Virus record (IMG/VR): IMGVR_UViG_2693429554_000013
Source: a virus
Lineage: Duplodnaviria > Heunggongvirae > Uroviricota > Caudoviricetes
Length of the DNA: 34,429 nt
Direction: 5' to 3' (one strand)
Positions 5,386 through 34,429 of this stretch are shown here, one piece after another. Made by a program: the position numbers and the translations under genes. Position 1 is the first letter of the stretch. Each line of letters starts with the position of its first letter. Under the pieces are notes generated by a model. It saw nothing but the letters and a program-made list of their open reading frames with translations, made no database searches and was not told the DNA's origin.

Positions 5386-5476
5386 GTAACCACTATGTAC
5401 ACACAAAAAAACCGCTTGCCATGCCGCAATCAGTCAGGTTACATTTCCGCTGCACCTCATAAAACGGGTGCCGGGA

Positions 5477-5694
5477 TTGGAACCCCGCTGACTATACACG
5501 CGCACAACCGCGCCAGCGGTTTTTTTGTGCGTACCGTATCGCCACGTCTTTTTCGCGTCAGAATTATGGTGGGGCGTATGGGGCCGACTTCGGTCGGGCC
5601 GGGTTCGTGTATAGCCGGTAGTTCCAACCCTGTACGTCTCACCACCCCGAGCTTGGAACCTCTGGATGGTGAGTTTTCAAAACTTACTATACAC
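5477..5694. repeat. Three copies of a bipartite motif TTGGAAC(C)-N-CTATACAC (two direct, one inverted) flanking a UUCG-loop hairpin
   Basis: Copies at 5477-5499 (direct), 5607-5629 (inverted), 5653-5694 (direct); hairpin CCGAC-TTCG-GTCGG at 5584-5597. Confidence 0.45.
5506..5527 (+). terminator. Candidate Rho-independent terminator
   Basis: Short GC stem ACCGC/GCGGT with GCCA loop followed by TTTTTT; the stem is short. Confidence 0.35.
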
Positions 5695-5705
5695 GAGGCC
5701 ACACC

Positions 5706-5936
5706 ATGGCAAACCGCAAACAGCACCGCGCTATCGCGGAGCGTCGTCACATCCAGACTGAAATCAACCGCAGACTTTCCCGCGCATTCCGCGTCGCTAA
5801 AATCATGCACATCAATATGCTGCATGAGCGTAGCTGCGAACTTTCAAACCTCTACTCATCCGCTGTTTTCAGCTATCTGGCAGATGATCTGCGCGAGCTT
5901 CAGCAGCTCATCCAGCAGCAAAACAAACTCCATTAA
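5706..5936 (+). CDS. Hypothetical small basic protein
   Basis: 76 aa, charged/helical composition; preferred over the overlapping low-complexity ORF 5395-6012. Confidence 0.5.
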   Translation: MANRKQHRAIAERRHIQTEINRRLSRAFRVAKIMHINMLHERSCELSNLYSSAVFSYLADDLRELQQLIQQQNKLH

Positions 5937-6008
5937 TTCTGGTTCCGGGCCTTTCCTGCACCTTGCGGCGGGAGGCCTTCGCACATCTGTAACAAGAGGA
6001 TTGCCGCA

Positions 6009-6374
6009 ATGATTCTCGCCAACGACTTTCTTGAATACCTGCTCAACACAGAGCGCGATCTTGCCGTTCGCGCGCGTGACCGTTATGACATGTACCTGAA
6101 ATCCCTGCCTGTACCACAGCCCGCTGACGGAAAGATTGTTATTGATGGCCGCTACATGATTGACAGCCACGAGGGAAATTACAGGCTTTACCGCATTGAA
6201 GGCGGCACCCCGTCCGTTATTGGCATTTACCAGCGCCCATCCTCTGCAATCGTCGATGTGATTGCAGACAGCATCCGCATCACACATCGCTATGCCGACA
6301 CAGAAGACACCGTGCTGGAAATTCAGCGGCTGGCTACAGTCTGCCGCGACACCCTGAACGGTATGACGAAGTAA
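6009..6374 (+). CDS. Hypothetical protein upstream of the replication gene
   Basis: 121 aa; RBS AGAGGA; no motif recognised. Confidence 0.5.
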   Translation: MILANDFLEYLLNTERDLAVRARDRYDMYLKSLPVPQPADGKIVIDGRYMIDSHEGNYRLYRIEGGTPSVIGIYQRPSSAIVDVIADSIRITHRYADTEDTVLEIQRLATVCRDTLNGMTK

Positions 6375-6380
6375 ATCACT

Positions 6381-9203
6381 ATGACGACAGAGTACATCAG
6401 GGACTGGCAACAACCGCGCCACGCAGTCGGTCGCGAAGGAACAGGGATCCCCGCACCTGAGTCTGCACTTTCCTCCTGGCTGGATGCCTACCGGACTGAG
6501 AACGAGCGCCGCCAGGAAATGGCTGATGCGGCGTTCTCCGCCACGCCGCTGGGCAACCTGATTAATAAAAGCCTGGACGCACAGGAAAAACAGGACAAAA
6601 CCATCACCCTGGCAGGAGATGCCAGAAAGCAGGCACGCGGCGCGGTGGATGAAGCCATGGCCTCGCTGCGCCTGCTGCCGTCCTATCTGCGCGATCCGCT
6701 TATTCGCCACCTCTCCTTCCTGCGCAAAAAACAGGAAGCCGATCGCCGGAAAGGCAAAAAGAGCTGGCAGGCTGAACGCTACGCGCGCGGAACCCTGCGC
6801 AAAATATTCGAACGTCTGGACCGCACCGACCACCGCTGGCTGACACCGGGTTATCGCTCCCTTGCAGGACGCGAACGCCTGGATGATTTGCTTTACCTGC
6901 CGCAGCTCAACAAGCACCAGATACAGACGCTGGCCACCATGACGGCGGCGATGTTCAGCAGCACCTTCGAAAAACTCTGCGATGGCTTTGGCGCGACTGA
7001 TGGCGAGCTGACCATGGATGTAACCCTGAAGGCGTATCAGATGCTGGCCCGCATGGCGTTACACCTGCACGCCATGCCTCCGCATTATGACGCACTGACA
7101 ACAGATAAAGACCGGAGGAACGAACCGGATACGGAGCTGCTGCCGGGCGCAGTCCTTCGCCTGACTTGTGCGGAATGGTGGAAACGCAAACTGTGGCTGT
7201 TACGTTGCGAGTGGAGAGAAGAACAACTCCGCGCCGCCTGTCTGGTTTCCAGAAAAACATCGCCCTATCTGAGCCAGGACGCATTAAGCGAGTTTCGCGC
7301 ACAGCGCGAGAAAACACGCGATTTCCTGAAAAGTTTCATGCTGGAAAACGAAGACGGGTTCACGATTGATCTCGAGACGGTGTATTACGCGGGAGTAAGT
7401 AACCCGGTTCACCGTAAGGCAGAAATGATGGCCACCATGAAGGGGCTGGAACTTCTGGCCGAAGCCCGTGGCGACAAAGCGGTGTTTCTGACCGTCACCT
7501 GCCCGTCAAAATACCACGCCACAACAGAGAACGGTCATCCGAATCCCAAATGGAACGGGGCCACCATGCGCGACTCCAGCGATTACCTGGTTAACACGTT
7601 TTTTGCGGCGGTCCGCAAAAAACTGAACCGCGACGGCCTGCGCTGGTATGGCATCCGCACGGTGGAGCCTCACCATGACGGCACCGTGCACTGGCACATG
7701 ATGGTCTTTGCTCATCCGGAAGAAATCGACAGCATCGTGGCCATCACCCGCGATATTGCCATTCAGGAAGACCGCCACGAGCTGGGCGATGACATAACTC
7801 CGCGTTTTAAGGCGGAGTACGTCGACGGCTCAAAAGGCACGCCAACCAGCTACATCGCCACCTACATCGGAAAGAACCTGGACAGCCGCGCCGTGGATGG
7901 CATCGACCCGAAAACGGGCAAGCCACGCGTTGACCACGAAACCGGAAAATCAATGGCCGAGAGTGTGGAACGCGCCATCGGCTGGGCGCGCCTTCACCGG
8001 GTCCGCCAGTTCCAGTTCTTTGGCATCCCCTCCCGTCAGGTATGGCGTGAACTCCGCCGCCTTGCCAGCCAGATGGCACGCAACCCGGAAGGCCCACAAC
8101 GGCTGAAGGATGATGCAATGGATGCGGTACTCGCTGCCGCTGATGCCGGGTGTTTTGCCACCTACATTGAGAAACAGGGCGGCGTACTTGTTCCACGCAA
8201 AGACTACCTGATTCGCACCGCCTACGACCTCGCAGATGAGCTGAACGATTACGGTGAACAGAGCGTACAGATTTACGGGATCTGGTCGCCGCTCATCGGG
8301 GAGTCTTCCCGCGTATGCACGCATCCGGATAACTGGAAGCTGGTAAGACGCAAACCGGAAGCGGAAGACAGCGCCCGCGAAAATGGTTTTGACCTTCAGG
8401 GCGGCCCTGCCGCCCCTTGGACTCGTGGCAATAACTGTCCCCATGTACAGGAAACGGACAACAACGGGACAGAACAGCCGGAAGAACGGCCAGCACCGTG
8501 GCCGCAGCTCCCTGGCGGCGTTGAAGTGAACGAATGGATGCGCTCACTGAAACGGCACGAACGCCGGGCGCTGATGCGTTCGCTGCGTGACAAGCAGGCA
8601 AAAAACAGCAGTGATGAAATGCAGAACTGGACACAGAGCCGCAAACAGCCACAGCCTTTGCCTGATAACCACGAATTACTCGCTAAAGAATGGCGGGAGT
8701 CTGCCGAATCTCTCGGCCTGCATATCGGTGAACAGCAGATGCAGCACCTGTTACGGGGCGGCAGCCTGTACGTTGACGGCAGCATCATTGCACCACAGGG
8801 ATTTGAAATTGTACGCAAACCGGATACCCGCCCGGACAGCCGAATCACACAGCTCTGGCAGCACCTGAGCCGTAATCACGGCGTAAGCAGCACGGAGATC
8901 CGCCATAACCCGGTCGCCAGCTATCTGGCACAGCTGGGGGCATCAGACCCCGAAGCCGCCGCACGTCTGGCATCCACACTTCAGCAGGACCAGAACACCA
9001 TGAAAACCCCCGTTACCGTGCTTTCTGACATGCTGCGCGTCATCCGTGACGCAGAGCACGCACAGAGAATCAGTGAAACAACTGAACGCGCCCGCCGCAA
9101 AGCAGACCTGCTGCGGGGTGGCCTGACCAGTGGAAACAAAAAACAGACAGAAACGGGATTCACAAATCCCGTAAATGAGCAAAAAACGCACCGCGATATA
9201 TGA
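6381..9203 (+). CDS. Rolling-circle replication initiator endonuclease, P2 gpA family
   Basis: 940 aa; metal-binding motif EPHHDGTVHWHMMVF and paired-tyrosine motif YIATYIGK typical of the P2 A / phiX174 A superfamily; long C-terminal region. Confidence 0.85.
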   Translation: MTTEYIRDWQQPRHAVGREGTGIPAPESALSSWLDAYRTENERRQEMADAAFSATPLGNLINKSLDAQEKQDKTITLAGDARKQARGAVDEAMASLRLLPSYLRDPLIRHLSFLRKKQEADRRKGKKSWQAERYARGTLRKIFERLDRTDHRWLTPGYRSLAGRERLDDLLYLPQLNKHQIQTLATMTAAMFSSTFEKLCDGFGATDGELTMDVTLKAYQMLARMALHLHAMPPHYDALTTDKDRRNEPDTELLPGAVLRLTCAEWWKRKLWLLRCEWREEQLRAACLVSRKTSPYLSQDALSEFRAQREKTRDFLKSFMLENEDGFTIDLETVYYAGVSNPVHRKAEMMATMKGLELLAEARGDKAVFLTVTCPSKYHATTENGHPNPKWNGATMRDSSDYLVNTFFAAVRKKLNRDGLRWYGIRTVEPHHDGTVHWHMMVFAHPEEIDSIVAITRDIAIQEDRHELGDDITPRFKAEYVDGSKGTPTSYIATYIGKNLDSRAVDGIDPKTGKPRVDHETGKSMAESVERAIGWARLHRVRQFQFFGIPSRQVWRELRRLASQMARNPEGPQRLKDDAMDAVLAAADAGCFATYIEKQGGVLVPRKDYLIRTAYDLADELNDYGEQSVQIYGIWSPLIGESSRVCTHPDNWKLVRRKPEAEDSARENGFDLQGGPAAPWTRGNNCPHVQETDNNGTEQPEERPAPWPQLPGGVEVNEWMRSLKRHERRALMRSLRDKQAKNSSDEMQNWTQSRKQPQPLPDNHELLAKEWRESAESLGLHIGEQQMQHLLRGGSLYVDGSIIAPQGFEIVRKPDTRPDSRITQLWQHLSRNHGVSSTEIRHNPVASYLAQLGASDPEAAARLASTLQQDQNTMKTPVTVLSDMLRVIRDAEHAQRISETTERARRKADLLRGGLTSGNKKQTETGFTNPVNEQKTHRDI

Positions 9204-9244
9204 AGCGCGCACAAAACAGGCAAAAACGGGATTTAAAAATCCCG
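9152..9244. promoter_or_regulatory. Two 20-bp palindromes ACGGGATT-N4-AATCCCGT 73 bp apart, upstream of parM; candidate parC centromere/operator
   Basis: Palindromes at 9152-9171 (inside the 3' end of the gpA-like gene) and 9225-9244; part of a ~40-bp direct duplication. Confidence 0.45.
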
Positions 9245-9279
9245 TAAACGATTAATTAACCAACATAAGGAAAAGCGAC

Positions 9280-10239
9280 ATGAAAATTTGTATCGACGAC
9301 GGCTCCACCAACATCAAGCTGGCATGGACTGAGAATGGCGAACGCCGCAACGCCATCAGCCCGAACAGCTTCAAGTCGGAATGGTCTGCGCCGTTCGGTG
9401 GCATGCAGCCCGCGAACTACATGCTTGATGGCGTGCGCTATGGTTTTGATCCGGTCAGCGATCGCTTTGTCCAGACGACCGACACGCAATACCAGTACAG
9501 CGATGTGAATGTCATTGCCATTCATCACGCGCTGGTCAAATCAGGCATCACACCACAGGAAGTGGATGTGGTTGTCACCCTGCCACTGAGCGAGTATTTC
9601 GATACAAACGCACAGCCGGACATGGCCAACATCAACCGCAAAAAAGCGAACGTCATGCGCCCGGTGGAGTACCAGAACGGCGAAGCATTCACTATCCGTA
9701 ACGTACGGGTTATGCCTGAATCCATTCCGGCTGGCTTTAAGGCACTGGCTGACATGAGTCCGTTTGAATCCCTGCTGATTGTGGATTTGGGCGGAACCAC
9801 GCTGGATGTGGCAAAGGTTCAGGGGCAACTGGCAGGTATCAGCCAGGTGTTTTGCGATCCACACGTAGGCGTTTCTCTGATGGCCGATGCCGTGCTGTCG
9901 GTGATGGCCACCAACGGTATGCGCACCAGTCACCACATCGCCAATACCATTATCGAACATCGCCACGATGAAGCCTGGCTGCGCCAGCACATCCACAATG
10001 ACGCGCATTACGCCAGCCTGATGGCAGTTATTCGTGAAAAGGAGGAAACACTGAAACAACGCGTGATCCGCGCGCTGGCGGGTTTTTCGGGTTACGGGCG
10101 GGTGATGGTTGTAGGTGGAGGAGCGGAGATTGTGGCACCCGCTATCCGCGAAGCCTGCGGAGTTAATGCGACTTTCATCGCGGACGGGGTGCCACAGTTT
10201 GCTCTGGTTAATGGGCTGTACGCAATGGACAAGGAGTAA
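9280..10239 (+). CDS. parM: ParM/StbA-family actin-like segregation ATPase
   Basis: 319 aa; N-terminus MKICIDDGSTNIKLAW and motifs ISPNSFK, YQYSDVNV, LIVDLGGTTLDV match my recollection of plasmid R1 ParM. Confidence 0.85.
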   Translation: MKICIDDGSTNIKLAWTENGERRNAISPNSFKSEWSAPFGGMQPANYMLDGVRYGFDPVSDRFVQTTDTQYQYSDVNVIAIHHALVKSGITPQEVDVVVTLPLSEYFDTNAQPDMANINRKKANVMRPVEYQNGEAFTIRNVRVMPESIPAGFKALADMSPFESLLIVDLGGTTLDVAKVQGQLAGISQVFCDPHVGVSLMADAVLSVMATNGMRTSHHIANTIIEHRHDEAWLRQHIHNDAHYASLMAVIREKEETLKQRVIRALAGFSGYGRVMVVGGGAEIVAPAIREACGVNATFIADGVPQFALVNGLYAMDKE

Positions 10240-10243
10240 ATCA

Positions 10244-10558
10244 ATGACGACACCAACCAGACGGATAAGTTTCTATCTGAAGCCCGCCGTCGTCAAGAGC
10301 GAACGGGAGGCGTGTAATTACCTCGACAGCCTGCCAGCCTCCGAACGCAGCCGCGCACAACGCGCGGCTTTTCTGGCTGGACTGGCTCTTATAAAACGCA
10401 CCCCCGCGTTGGCGTATTCGCTGGCAGAATGGTCAGAAGACGAAATACGGATGCCACCGCTACCAGTACAGCCTGAAAAACCGGCGCAACCAGCAGCAGA
10501 CAGCGCCCCCCATATGCAGCAGGTGAAAAAGAATATTCAGGCGTTTTTCCCGAAGTGA
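10244..10558 (+). CDS. parR: ParR/StbB-like centromere-binding adaptor
   Basis: 104 aa; RRISFYLKPAVVKSEREACNYLDSLPASERSRAQRAAFLAGLALIKR aligns with my recollection of R1 ParR; AGGAG RBS; ORF-track start 10115 is in frame but overlaps parM. Confidence 0.7.
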   Translation: MTTPTRRISFYLKPAVVKSEREACNYLDSLPASERSRAQRAAFLAGLALIKRTPALAYSLAEWSEDEIRMPPLPVQPEKPAQPAADSAPHMQQVKKNIQAFFPK

Positions 10559-10572
10559 AAACAGGAGTAACT

Positions 10573-10860
10573 ATGTCCACCATTACCAAAAAATGGTTAC
10601 AACGTAAAATCACAGAGTTTAAATCGTGGCGCGAAGACATCCCGTTCGGTCTTGATGAAGACGATCACAATATGTTAATCGCACTGGAAATCGCACTTGC
10701 ATCACTGGAAGCAGAGCCAGTGGCATGGATGCACGCAAATAATCCTATTGGAATACCGGCGATAACAAGAAGTAAAGATGTTGCAGACAGCTGGCGCTCT
10801 AAGGGATGGAATGTATTGCCTCTTTATTCACTGACCCGCCCCATCAATTTATGCCATTAA
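10573..10860 (+). CDS. Hypothetical protein in AT-rich insert
   Basis: 95 aa from ATG 10573 (RBS AGGAG); AT-rich by eye. Confidence 0.5.
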   Translation: MSTITKKWLQRKITEFKSWREDIPFGLDEDDHNMLIALEIALASLEAEPVAWMHANNPIGIPAITRSKDVADSWRSKGWNVLPLYSLTRPINLCH

Positions 10861-10871
10861 TGGAAGTAATC

Positions 10872-11231
10872 ATGATGAAAGATAATTCCGGAAGCCAGCG
10901 TGCATCAGTTGCAGTTATGGTAATGATTAAATTTGTGAAACAGTACACCGGAAAGCCAATTTCGCTCCGGCAATTAAGCAAAGAAACCGTTTCACTGTCA
11001 TATCTGGAGCAAATATTCAGATATTTACGGGAAAGTAGCCTGGTAAAAGCCACACGCGGCCCGGGTGGTGGATATATCCCGACAAAAGAAAATTACAGTG
11101 TTGGTGATATTGTCCGGGCAATGAAATGTTCCGGATTATATACACAGCACGTTATTCTGGCTGCACTGGATAATATTTCTTTAACCAGCCTGCAGGAAGA
11201 CACAAATTATCAGTTGTCTGCCATTGAATAA
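10872..11231 (+). CDS. Rrf2-family-like transcriptional regulator, short form
   Basis: 119 aa; ISLSYLEQIFRYLRESSLVKATRGPGGGY matches the Rrf2/IscR winged-helix signature as I recall it; lacks the three-Cys cluster. Confidence 0.6.
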   Translation: MMKDNSGSQRASVAVMVMIKFVKQYTGKPISLRQLSKETVSLSYLEQIFRYLRESSLVKATRGPGGGYIPTKENYSVGDIVRAMKCSGLYTQHVILAALDNISLTSLQEDTNYQLSAIE

Positions 11232-11235
11232 GAAA

Positions 11236-11278
11236 ACCCGGAACGGGTGCGCAAATTCTTTGTGCGCCCGTTCCGGGT
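11236..11278. terminator. Strong hairpin between convergent genes, with T-run on the minus-strand side
   Basis: CCCGGAACGGGTGCGC ... GCGCCCGTTCCGGG stem, loop AAATTCTTTGT; T-rich tract on minus strand. Confidence 0.55.
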
Positions 11279-11299: not shown

Positions 11300-11557
11300 C
11301 TATCCGGCCTGCAACAACTCCAGAGCCATTTGTTTTTCTTCCGGACGCATCCGCTCAATCAACAGCTTTAACACACCATTCTCCAGCCCGCTGGGCACCA
11401 GTGTGTGCGAGTAGGTCAGATTCATCACCCAGGTATGTCCGCACTCGAGACGGGTGCAACGGTAATACACATCAGCAAACTGATCGGTTTTCCAGGCTGT
11501 TTTCTCAATCACTGCATGTGCACCGCAGCAATGACATCGCGCTTTCTGTCTGCGCAT
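11300..11557 (-). CDS. ogr: Ogr/Delta-family zinc-finger late-gene transcription activator
   Basis: Cys-x2-Cys ... Cys-x4-Cys pattern (CHCCG...CTRLECGH); start moved to internal ATG 11557, preceded by GGAGG. Confidence 0.7.
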   Translation of the reverse strand: MRRQKARCHCCGAHAVIEKTAWKTDQFADVYYRCTRLECGHTWVMNLTYSHTLVPSGLENGVLKLLIERMRPEEKQMALELLQAG

Positions 11558-34288: not shown

Positions 34289-34429
34289 ATGTCGCAAAAA
34301 TCGCTTACGGCCATCACGTTCTGCGTGACGGTAATCCTCATCATCTGGATGCTGCACGGTTCGCTGTGTGAAATACGGATGAGCTTCTGGGGAGCGGAGT
34401 TTGCGGCGTTCTTACAGTGTAAGCAGTAA
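34289..34429 (+). CDS. hok: Hok/Gef-family type I toxin peptide (HokA-like)
   Basis: 46 aa MSQKSLTAITFCVTVILIIWMLHGSLCEIRMSFWGAEFAAFLQCKQ; TM helix plus SLCEIR...AAF signature; SD AAAGGAG 7 bp upstream. Confidence 0.75.
   Translation: MSQKSLTAITFCVTVILIIWMLHGSLCEIRMSFWGAEFAAFLQCKQ

Follow-up and report, generated by a model that had tools for sequence, protein, structure and literature searches.

The window analysed here, a stretch of 34,429 nucleotides held as IMG/VR virus record IMGVR_UViG_2693429554_000013 (Duplodnaviria; Heunggongvirae; Uroviricota; Caudoviricetes), belongs to a P88-like (Peduoviridae), P2-family prophage of Escherichia coli inserted at the tRNA-Leu gene leuZ. Behind its replication gene lies a cassette of 1.5 kb composed of parM, parR and an upstream pair of palindromes forming a candidate centromere (parC). 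The encoded proteins are bona fide members of the ParM and ParR families under selection, and the palindrome pair is co-inherited with their genes. The cassette is probably a functional type II (ParMRC) segregation system acting on the transiently extrachromosomal, circular genome of this P88-like phage at leuZ. Profile, structure-database and comparative evidence agree on an actin-type module with a candidate centromere, as a first-pass annotation made from the letters alone had proposed.

The cassette itself is already catalogued and represents no new type of system. A putative plasmid partitioning system is reported from about a quarter of P2-like phages, with StbA plus Plasmid_stab_B arrangements included in the supplementary tables of that study, which also offered the plasmid-maintenance speculation (Rousset et al., 2022; PMC9122126); the novelty implied by the first-pass annotation therefore falls away. 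In GenBank and RefSeq the two genes are labelled as ParM and as plasmid partitioning/stability protein, in P88 and phiSM as well as in over 1000 chromosomes, and the phiSM protein has been classed as a “fitness” gene (Magaziner et al., 2019; PMC6456863). No functional work on a P2-like ParMRC was found in the literature, where the system receives passing remarks only (PMC9122126; PMC6456863). New details provided here are the parC candidate and its co-inheritance with parMR, the left edge of the cassette within gene A, the two classes of ParR allele and the differences in selection between the ParR domains, and the linkage of gpA–parMRC to two virion modules. About one in four complete E. coli genomes has this plasmid-type segregation cassette, which is carried by an integrating phage.

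ParM and ParR

The first gene of the cassette, parM (9280–10239, + strand), is preceded by the ribosome-binding site AAGGA and encodes an actin-fold ATPase of 319 amino acids whose N-terminal sequence starts MKICIDDGSTNIKLAW. Its proposed kinship with plasmid R1 ParM is well supported by family profiles, with residues 1–157 matching Pfam StbA_N (E 2.7e-82) and residues 159–316 the ParM C-terminal domain (E 1.3e-68), both far above the gathering scores. Among PDB sequences the protein matches the R1 ParM structures (1mwk and others) with an E value of 8.5e-93, it also matches PHROG 691, “partition protein”, and it shares 47% identity over 318 residues with R1/R100-type StbA. The segments DDGSTNIK, MPESIPAG, DLGGTTLD and GGGAE have identical or nearly identical counterparts in R1-type ParM; by the structure of R1 ParM these are the phosphate 1, catalytic Glu, phosphate 2 and adenosine motifs, respectively. 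The copies in P88, phiSM and other Xuanwuvirus/Peduoviridae records are 99.4–99.7% identical to the ParM of the window.

The second gene, parR (10244–10558, + strand, ATG start), encodes a predicted centromere-binding adaptor of 104 amino acids. The ParR-like character ascribed to it earlier from its N-terminus holds at the level of the whole protein, which matches PF10784 Plasmid_stab_B (E 1.4e-24), the same family that is matched by R1/R100-type StbB (ParR) (E 2.7e-30), by the ParR of phage D6 and by a Phytobacter plasmid ParR. Furthermore, a profile of ParR relatives matches the pB171 ParR crystal structure 2jd3 (E 6.6e-13). In ParR of R1 and pB171 a ribbon-helix-helix DNA-binding domain is joined by a flexible linker to a ParM-binding C-terminal peptide. 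The protein of the window is laid out as an N-terminal strand, RRISFYLK, with helices, a hypervariable linker (about residues 66–92) and a conserved C-terminal tip, KKNIQAFFPK, which resembles the R1 tip KKNAMKLIN. An AF2 monomer model of modest confidence (mean pLDDT 66) has helices at residues 20–61, disorder at 62–89 and a further helix at 90–101, showing the helices and not the strand. A Foldseek search of this monomer against the PDB gave nothing below E = 7, as is expected because the fold forms only as a dimer.

Selection was assessed over 90 loci, of which 80 came from IMG/VR contigs and the others from the window, phage records and three genomes. ParM is intact, at 319 residues, in all 90, and the mean dN of parM is 0.004 against a mean dS of 0.085 (dN/dS 0.05), whereas the last 500 codons of gpA give a dN/dS of 0.23. 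The cassette is thus under purifying selection, parM more strongly than the gpA tail. Of 88 complete copies of ParR, 86 are intact, and the dN/dS of ParR differs by segment, being 0.12–0.13 in the N-domain, 0.60–0.66 in linker residues 66–92 and 0.04–0.11 in the C-terminal tip. Among 39 homologues, down to 48% identity, the invariant residues are R6–K13 (RRISFYLK), N97, I98, F102 and P103. This pattern matches what would be predicted of a DNA-binding domain connected through a flexible linker to a tip that binds ParM.

ParR falls into two allele classes, A (the window) and B (P88), and A/B recombinants exist. Distant relatives with a different DNA-binding strand were sought, but the 87 clusters obtained, nearly all from Escherichia, Shigella or Salmonella, carry the same strand. 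True plasmid relatives of the cassette are far more distant, with ca. 67% DNA identity within parM only, and 42–47% identity in the ParR N-domain.

The candidate centromere

The left end of the cassette and the candidate parC occupy 9100–9279 (+ strand), overlapping the last ca. 30 codons of gene A (gpA) and the 76-nt gap before parM. Within this segment stand two exact palindromes of the form ACGGGATT-N4-AATCCCGT, which the first-pass annotation had already picked out and which are candidate ParR sites. Palindrome 1, ACGGGATT-CACA-AATCCCGT (9153–9172), lies inside the gpA coding sequence, where it codes for TGFTNPV, while palindrome 2, ACGGGATT-TAAA-AATCCCGT (9226–9245), lies 34 nt upstream of the parM start. 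Each belongs to one copy of a 51-nt direct repeat (9137–9187 and 9210–9260, + strand) made up of an A-rich tract, the palindrome and AAA, the two copies being 80% identical and 73 nt apart. The half-site centres are 12 bp apart within each palindrome, and the palindromes straddle the gpA stop codon at a spacing of 73 bp, or about 7 helical turns. With up to 3 mismatches allowed, these are the only 2 matches in the 34.4 kb, with 0.16 expected, and 2 matches were reached in 1 of 100 shuffled controls.

Every locus whose upstream sequence reaches far enough, 88 in all, has the pair, with a spacer of 4 nt throughout and the 73-nt spacing in 85 of them. Where the genes are missing, the sites are missing as well. 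The chromosomes of E. coli M1/5 and Z0117EC0013 carry the same gpA type without parMR, with an AAA-family ATPase and an S8-family peptidase in its place; homology to the window stops at about 9095–9110, gpA ends earlier, and no palindrome half-site occurs in the 6.6 kb of these loci. The palindromes therefore belong to the par cassette, the left edge of which lies inside the 3′ end of gene A, and such co-inheritance with parMR favours a parC role for them. In those two chromosomes an AT-rich gap of 180 nt, containing a promoter-like site, precedes the ATPase and peptidase pair, which is possibly a defence-type cargo. Among the IMG/VR matches listed, all 28 paired palindromes adjoin parM, and a further 23 single palindromes occur outside parM or gpA contexts with unrelated flanks. 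By rough estimate 23 lies within the range that chance would give, and the idea of further copies, for example on satellites, was dropped.

Variation within the palindromes is single-sided only, amounting to about 16 events with no significant strand bias and zero compensatory pairs, so that about half of the 88 sequences carry a change which breaks perfect pairing. Covariation between ParR allele and palindrome has no power as a test, the DNA-contact strand being invariant and the site variants being shared by both allele classes.

A role as a P2-type replication origin was considered for the palindromes and set aside, the annotated P2 nick site aligning to about 8405–8438, ca. 715 bp upstream. 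At that position gene A contains a homologue of the P2 ori nick site, reading GCCCCTTGGACTCGTGGCAATAACTGT against GCGCCTC|GGAGTCCTGTCAATAACTGT in P2, and the surrounding gpA DNA (about 8120–8470) is the sole part still conserved (69–77%) in remote P2-like phages from Klebsiella, Salmonella and Yersinia.

A further alternative is that the palindromes are no centromere but leftward (minus-strand) intrinsic terminators, or some other RNA or DNA structure, with ParR binding elsewhere or less specifically. Both score as terminators on the minus strand, with an 8-bp stem holding 4 GC pairs and a T-rich tail, the hairpins reach -10.2 kcal/mol with z-scores of -3.0 to -3.5, and the A-rich tract from which the U-tail would come is part of the conserved 51-nt repeat. 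On the other hand, no minus-strand gene ends there, and leftward transcripts from the cargo or late genes must first cross parR and parM in antisense; moreover, a terminator-like site already follows ogr, at 11248–11236. RNA-structure covariation is absent, with pairing broken on one side in about half of the sequences, the sites are lost exactly with parMR, and their position directly upstream of parM is that of parC in R1-type systems. The terminator explanation is unlikely.

Integrated and circular states

The cassette is widespread and, in nearly all cases, chromosomal. It is present in 1304 of 5426 complete E. coli genomes (24%), with up to three copies per genome, and its 1444 places in these genomes comprise 1442 in chromosomes and 2 in plasmids. 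The 3′ part of gpA that is specific to this lineage occurs in 1371 genomes, and about 94% of loci with this gpA type carry parMR. The cassette also occurs in phage or prophage records of E. albertii, Salmonella and Citrobacter. A scan of genome contigs with ParM returned 3 loci only (E. albertii, Salmonella and “Vagococcus”), since single-protein patterns are very specific. The last of these, a 98%-identical ParM locus on a 226-kb contig (NZ_JBQPOM010000071.1) labelled as the Gram-positive Vagococcus sp., is probably enterobacterial contamination or mislabelling.

Close copies in PLSDB (at least 80% query coverage) amount to six records, five of which are large replicons, between 228 kb and 1.4 Mb in size. 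The sixth, NZ_CP148288.1, is a 34,461-bp circle containing a complete P2-like phage genome with parMR, for which PLSDB lists no replicon type. Its cargo region has a 99.9% identical copy in the chromosome of another strain. PLSDB also holds circular P2-like “plasmids” of 30–37 kb without parMR, so NZ_CP148288.1 is not specific evidence for a plasmid state and was set aside as proof of an episomal one; the circular P2-like records probably reflect excised, replicating phage.

These data bear directly on the proposal, speculated upon by Rousset et al. (2022), of a phage-plasmid lifestyle in which the cassette keeps such prophages as, or alternating with, stable low-copy plasmids. ParMRC is a plasmid-type stability system, the ParM of the plasmid prophage D6 is 48% identical and annotated as similar to P88 StbA, the circular P2-like genome with parMR was deposited as a plasmid, and the prophage carries a hok/gef killer gene. 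However, the prophage is integrated between yecA and leuZ, it encodes an integrase and has att repeats at leuZ, and the chromosomal share of places given above leaves little room for extrachromosomal prophage maintenance. The sole replication function is the cis-acting rolling-circle gpA: no other replication protein was found, nor any theta or protelomerase replicon of the plasmid type, in keeping with the missing replicon type of the circular record. P2-like circles without parMR, the near-identical chromosomal copy of the cargo region, and a hok segment common to integrating Stx phages further reduce the weight of the points in its favour. A plasmid lifestyle is accordingly unlikely, and the alternation between integrated and episomal states envisaged by the first-pass annotation finds no support.

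Transcription context and hotspot position

The gene order of the region is gpA, parM, parR, variable cargo, ogr and portal, so the placement of the module after the replication gene, at the hotspot where P2 carries tin/old, is correct as first proposed. The parM start lies 76 nt past the gene A stop codon in the same orientation, and nothing resembling a + strand terminator was found between the two genes. Neither was a sigma-70-like promoter of 8/12 or better found in 9050–9280. These observations suggest, weakly, that parMR may be expressed with the early replication operon by co-transcription with gene A, the weakness arising because the known promoter region of R1 par likewise escapes the standard scan. 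A lenient promoter scan yields a candidate between the iteron blocks of the R1-type locus, and the same lenient scan of 9050–9280 is negative.

Position is likewise central to the idea that parMR is a lysogenic-conversion cargo, with ParM and ParR acting in trans against incoming plasmids or phages (incompatibility, exclusion) or as a defence system. The gpA–portal hotspot is rich in defence systems (PMC9122126; PMC9519451), the cassette is exchangeable for the AAA ATPase and S8 peptidase pair, and as many as three copies can stand together in one genome. A search of PADLOC-DB at E ≤ 0.1, however, gave no match for ParM, ParR, the 95-amino-acid open reading frame (ORF) or the Rrf2-family protein further right, so neither a defence role nor the exclusion role raised in the first-pass annotation finds backing there. 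While P2 tin/old have their own leftward transcript, parMR follows gene A closely on the same strand with no recognisable promoter, and its cis sites are co-inherited with its genes, as for a self-directed system. Similarity to the R1-type par DNA upstream of parM was not reported in the plasmid search, and the R1-type repeat architecture differs. A cargo acting in trans is quite unlikely.

Finally, the cassette might be a decaying relic of past plasmid–phage recombination, a plasmid-type module in an element which does not need it for chromosomal inheritance, but this is effectively refuted by the selection data, namely a ParM intact throughout with a dN/dS below that of the tail of the essential gene A and a ParR conserved at its functional ends, and is further at odds with the presence of the cassette across E. 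coli, E. albertii, Salmonella and Citrobacter.

Proposed function

Since the prophage is chromosomal in nearly all genomes and has a rolling-circle replicon only, the segregation system most likely acts on a transient extrachromosomal circle. P2-type gpA replication yields monomeric circles. As a mechanism, dimers of ParR, a ribbon-helix-helix-type adaptor, would bind the four half-sites of the two 8-N4-8 palindromes, its conserved C-terminal tip would capture the ends of ParM filaments, and ATP-driven polymerisation of ParM would then push the ParR-bound circular phage genomes apart. This may take place after infection and before integration, or after induction during P2-type replication, with copies being distributed or positioned accordingly. 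Distribution of copies to daughter cells before integration and positioning of replicating lytic DNA are both compatible with the data. Positioning of replicating phage DNA was also among the alternatives offered by the first-pass annotation, and positioning or segregation of replicating or excised DNA is the reading favoured here.

In a more specific form, parMRC would be no plasmid-maintenance device but would provide the phage with a cytoskeleton, made when the early replication operon is expressed, that separates rolling-circle monomers through a minimal centromere of two palindromes; we put this forward tentatively, at slightly under an even chance. If it is true, both daughters of an infected cell could be lysogenised, or replicating and packaging DNA correctly spaced in lytic growth, and an R1-type actin segregation machine would be routine in a quarter of E. 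coli P2-family prophages.

Several points weigh against segregation of the phage circle as the function of the cassette. That ParR binds the palindromes, that filaments form and that the system stabilises or positions DNA are predictions from sequence. The candidate centromere comprises four half-sites in inverted pairs only, compared with ten 11-bp direct iterons in R1 parC, and on the minus strand its palindromes resemble intrinsic terminators, with hairpins that lead into U-rich tails. Covariation, whether compensatory or specific to ParR alleles, is not obtainable, the ParR DNA-binding strand being invariant, and the promoter argument is weak, since the R1 control shows the low sensitivity of the scans. 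Partition also brings no obvious benefit to a phage that either integrates efficiently or kills its cell. P88 and phiSM are culturable and inducible, and the assays established for R1 ParMRC are directly transferable to them.

The host prophage

The window is 100% identical to a stretch of the matching RefSeq record, the E. coli 48956 chromosome, on which the prophage has yecA on one side and the leuZ-cysT-glyW tRNA cluster on the other. It is bounded by att, a direct repeat of 124 bp in which a single mismatch separates 26 from 97 identical bases, attR overlapping the 3′ end of tRNA-Leu leuZ. The two copies, attL and attR (10672–10795 of locus L001 and 6098–6221 of locus L093), lie just beyond both ends of the window, which is therefore a prophage call trimmed inside the att sites. 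It extends from the int stop codon to the hok gene, itself still prophage-internal. Of the earlier claim of an integrase-bearing element flanked by chromosome-like sequence, the integrase and the integration stand, the former by its domains and the latter by the RefSeq record, but chromosomal flank is absent from the window.

The tyrosine integrase (1–1002, − strand) has Int_N and Phage_integrase domains. Gene A (6381–9203, + strand) encodes gpA, a P2-type rolling-circle replication endonuclease of 940 amino acids (Pfam Phage_GPA, 5.4e-131). To the right of parR, the hotspot cargo (10573–11231, + strand) consists of a 95-amino-acid ORF, matching PHROG 660/60 of the unknown-function class, and a 123-amino-acid Rrf2-family winged-helix regulator (Pfam match 2.5e-13; PHROG 24072). 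Next after the cargo comes ogr (11300–11557), on the opposite strand.

The early region (repressor, early genes, gpA and parMR) shares 95–97% identity with Escherichia phage P88, Citrobacter phage phiSM and other Xuanwuvirus/Peduoviridae records, and in each of these ParM and a partition protein are annotated after the replication endonuclease. For the late region (11.6–31 kb), on the other hand, no close relative was found among 50,697 phage records. This module combines head genes of the P2 type with tail genes for DUF2586, tape measure, DUF2590 and baseplate J proteins, and its portal is 30% identical to that of P88. By sequence comparison the window is a mosaic of a P88-type early region and the late region of an unsequenced phage. 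The 64 related loci divide into 52 with a P88-type portal and 12 with that of the window. Since gpA–parMRC is paired with two unrelated virion modules, parMRC is tied to the replication module and not to the virion. P88 is a chromosomally integrated, mitomycin-inducible phage (PMC5285337), and phiSM is described as spontaneously active (PMC6456863).

Other features of the prophage lie apart from the cassette. Between the integrase and a repressor-like HTH gene, RefSeq annotates a DUF2511 protein and a membrane protein (1008–2035, − strand), which may be lysogenic-conversion cargo at a second variable locus. In the P2-family early region, on the + strand, Rfam matches at gathering score are isrK (5452–5526, 68.7 bits) and C4 antisense RNA (5562–5649, 81.3 bits); this segment (5452–5649) overlaps an Ash-family ORF (5395–6012) and is adjoined by a “derepression protein” gene. 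C4 is the immunity antisense RNA of P1/P7. At the right end, ca. 1 kb from attR, lies a Hok/Gef-family toxin ORF of 46 amino acids (34289–34429, + strand; Pfam HOK_GEF, 3.7e-07), with no Sok RNA at the locus at the Rfam threshold. The hok/mok segment is 93–96% identical in P88-like phages and 82% in many Stx phages, and being common to the latter it is not specific to plasmid-like lifestyles.

Comparison with known partition systems

The R1/R100 ParMRC (parA/stbAB) locus shares with the cassette the order of cis site, parM and parR, a ParM 47% identical with all nucleotide-binding motifs aligned, and a ParR which also belongs to PF10784. It differs in being carried by a low-copy plasmid, as opposed to an integrating prophage. 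The R1 parC contains two sets of five direct 11-bp iterons around the promoter, whereas here there are two 20-bp palindromes, one of them inside coding sequence, with no clear promoter between the sites (the scans being of low sensitivity), and no DNA similarity to the R1-type locus upstream of parM was reported in the plasmid search.

The same cassette, upstream region and post-gpA position are seen in P88, phiSM, other Xuanwuvirus/Peduoviridae records and the hotspot systems of Rousset et al. (2022), although P88 carries a class B ParR allele and another virion module, while the window is of class A. Plasmid prophage D6, a P1-like phage-plasmid, resembles the cassette through its 48% identical ParM, the PF10784 ParR encoded next to it (E 3.2e-11) and repeats upstream; unlike the present element it is a 91-kb plasmid prophage with TCTCA-type repeats and a ParA-like gene in addition.

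An integrase, an actin-like motor, an adaptor and upstream repeats occur together here, as expected of a partition system on an integrating element, the relation to the two systems that follow being one of functional analogy only. The srpMRC system of SXT/R391 integrative and conjugative elements (ICEs) is likewise an actin-type partition system on a normally integrated element, where it was shown to make loss of the transient circle less frequent (Carraro et al., 2015; PMC4489591). Its centromere, srpC, contains four 13-bp repeats, to which the candidate centromere described here is closer than to R1 parC (PMC4489591). The element is, however, an ICE and not a phage, and SrpR is not recognisably ParR-related (PMC4489591), whereas the ParR of the window is a clear member of PF10784.

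The AlpAC/alpS system of Corynebacterium glutamicum prophage CGP3 also combines an integrated prophage with an actin-like protein, a co-transcribed adaptor and a site preceding the operon, to which the adaptor binds (Donovan et al., 2015; PMC4446434). AlpAC is induced early at prophage excision and is required for efficient phage DNA replication (PMC4446434), and it is the best functional analogy for the role that parMRC may play during induction. Its differences are an unrelated Gram-positive host, an adaptor-first gene order (alpA-alpC) and a membership of the StbA/ParM family which is not stated. If function is shown for the P2-family cassette, the precedents of SXT/R391 and CGP3 would be extended to the best-studied bacterium, and a minimal centromere of four half-sites would become available for comparison with R1 parC.

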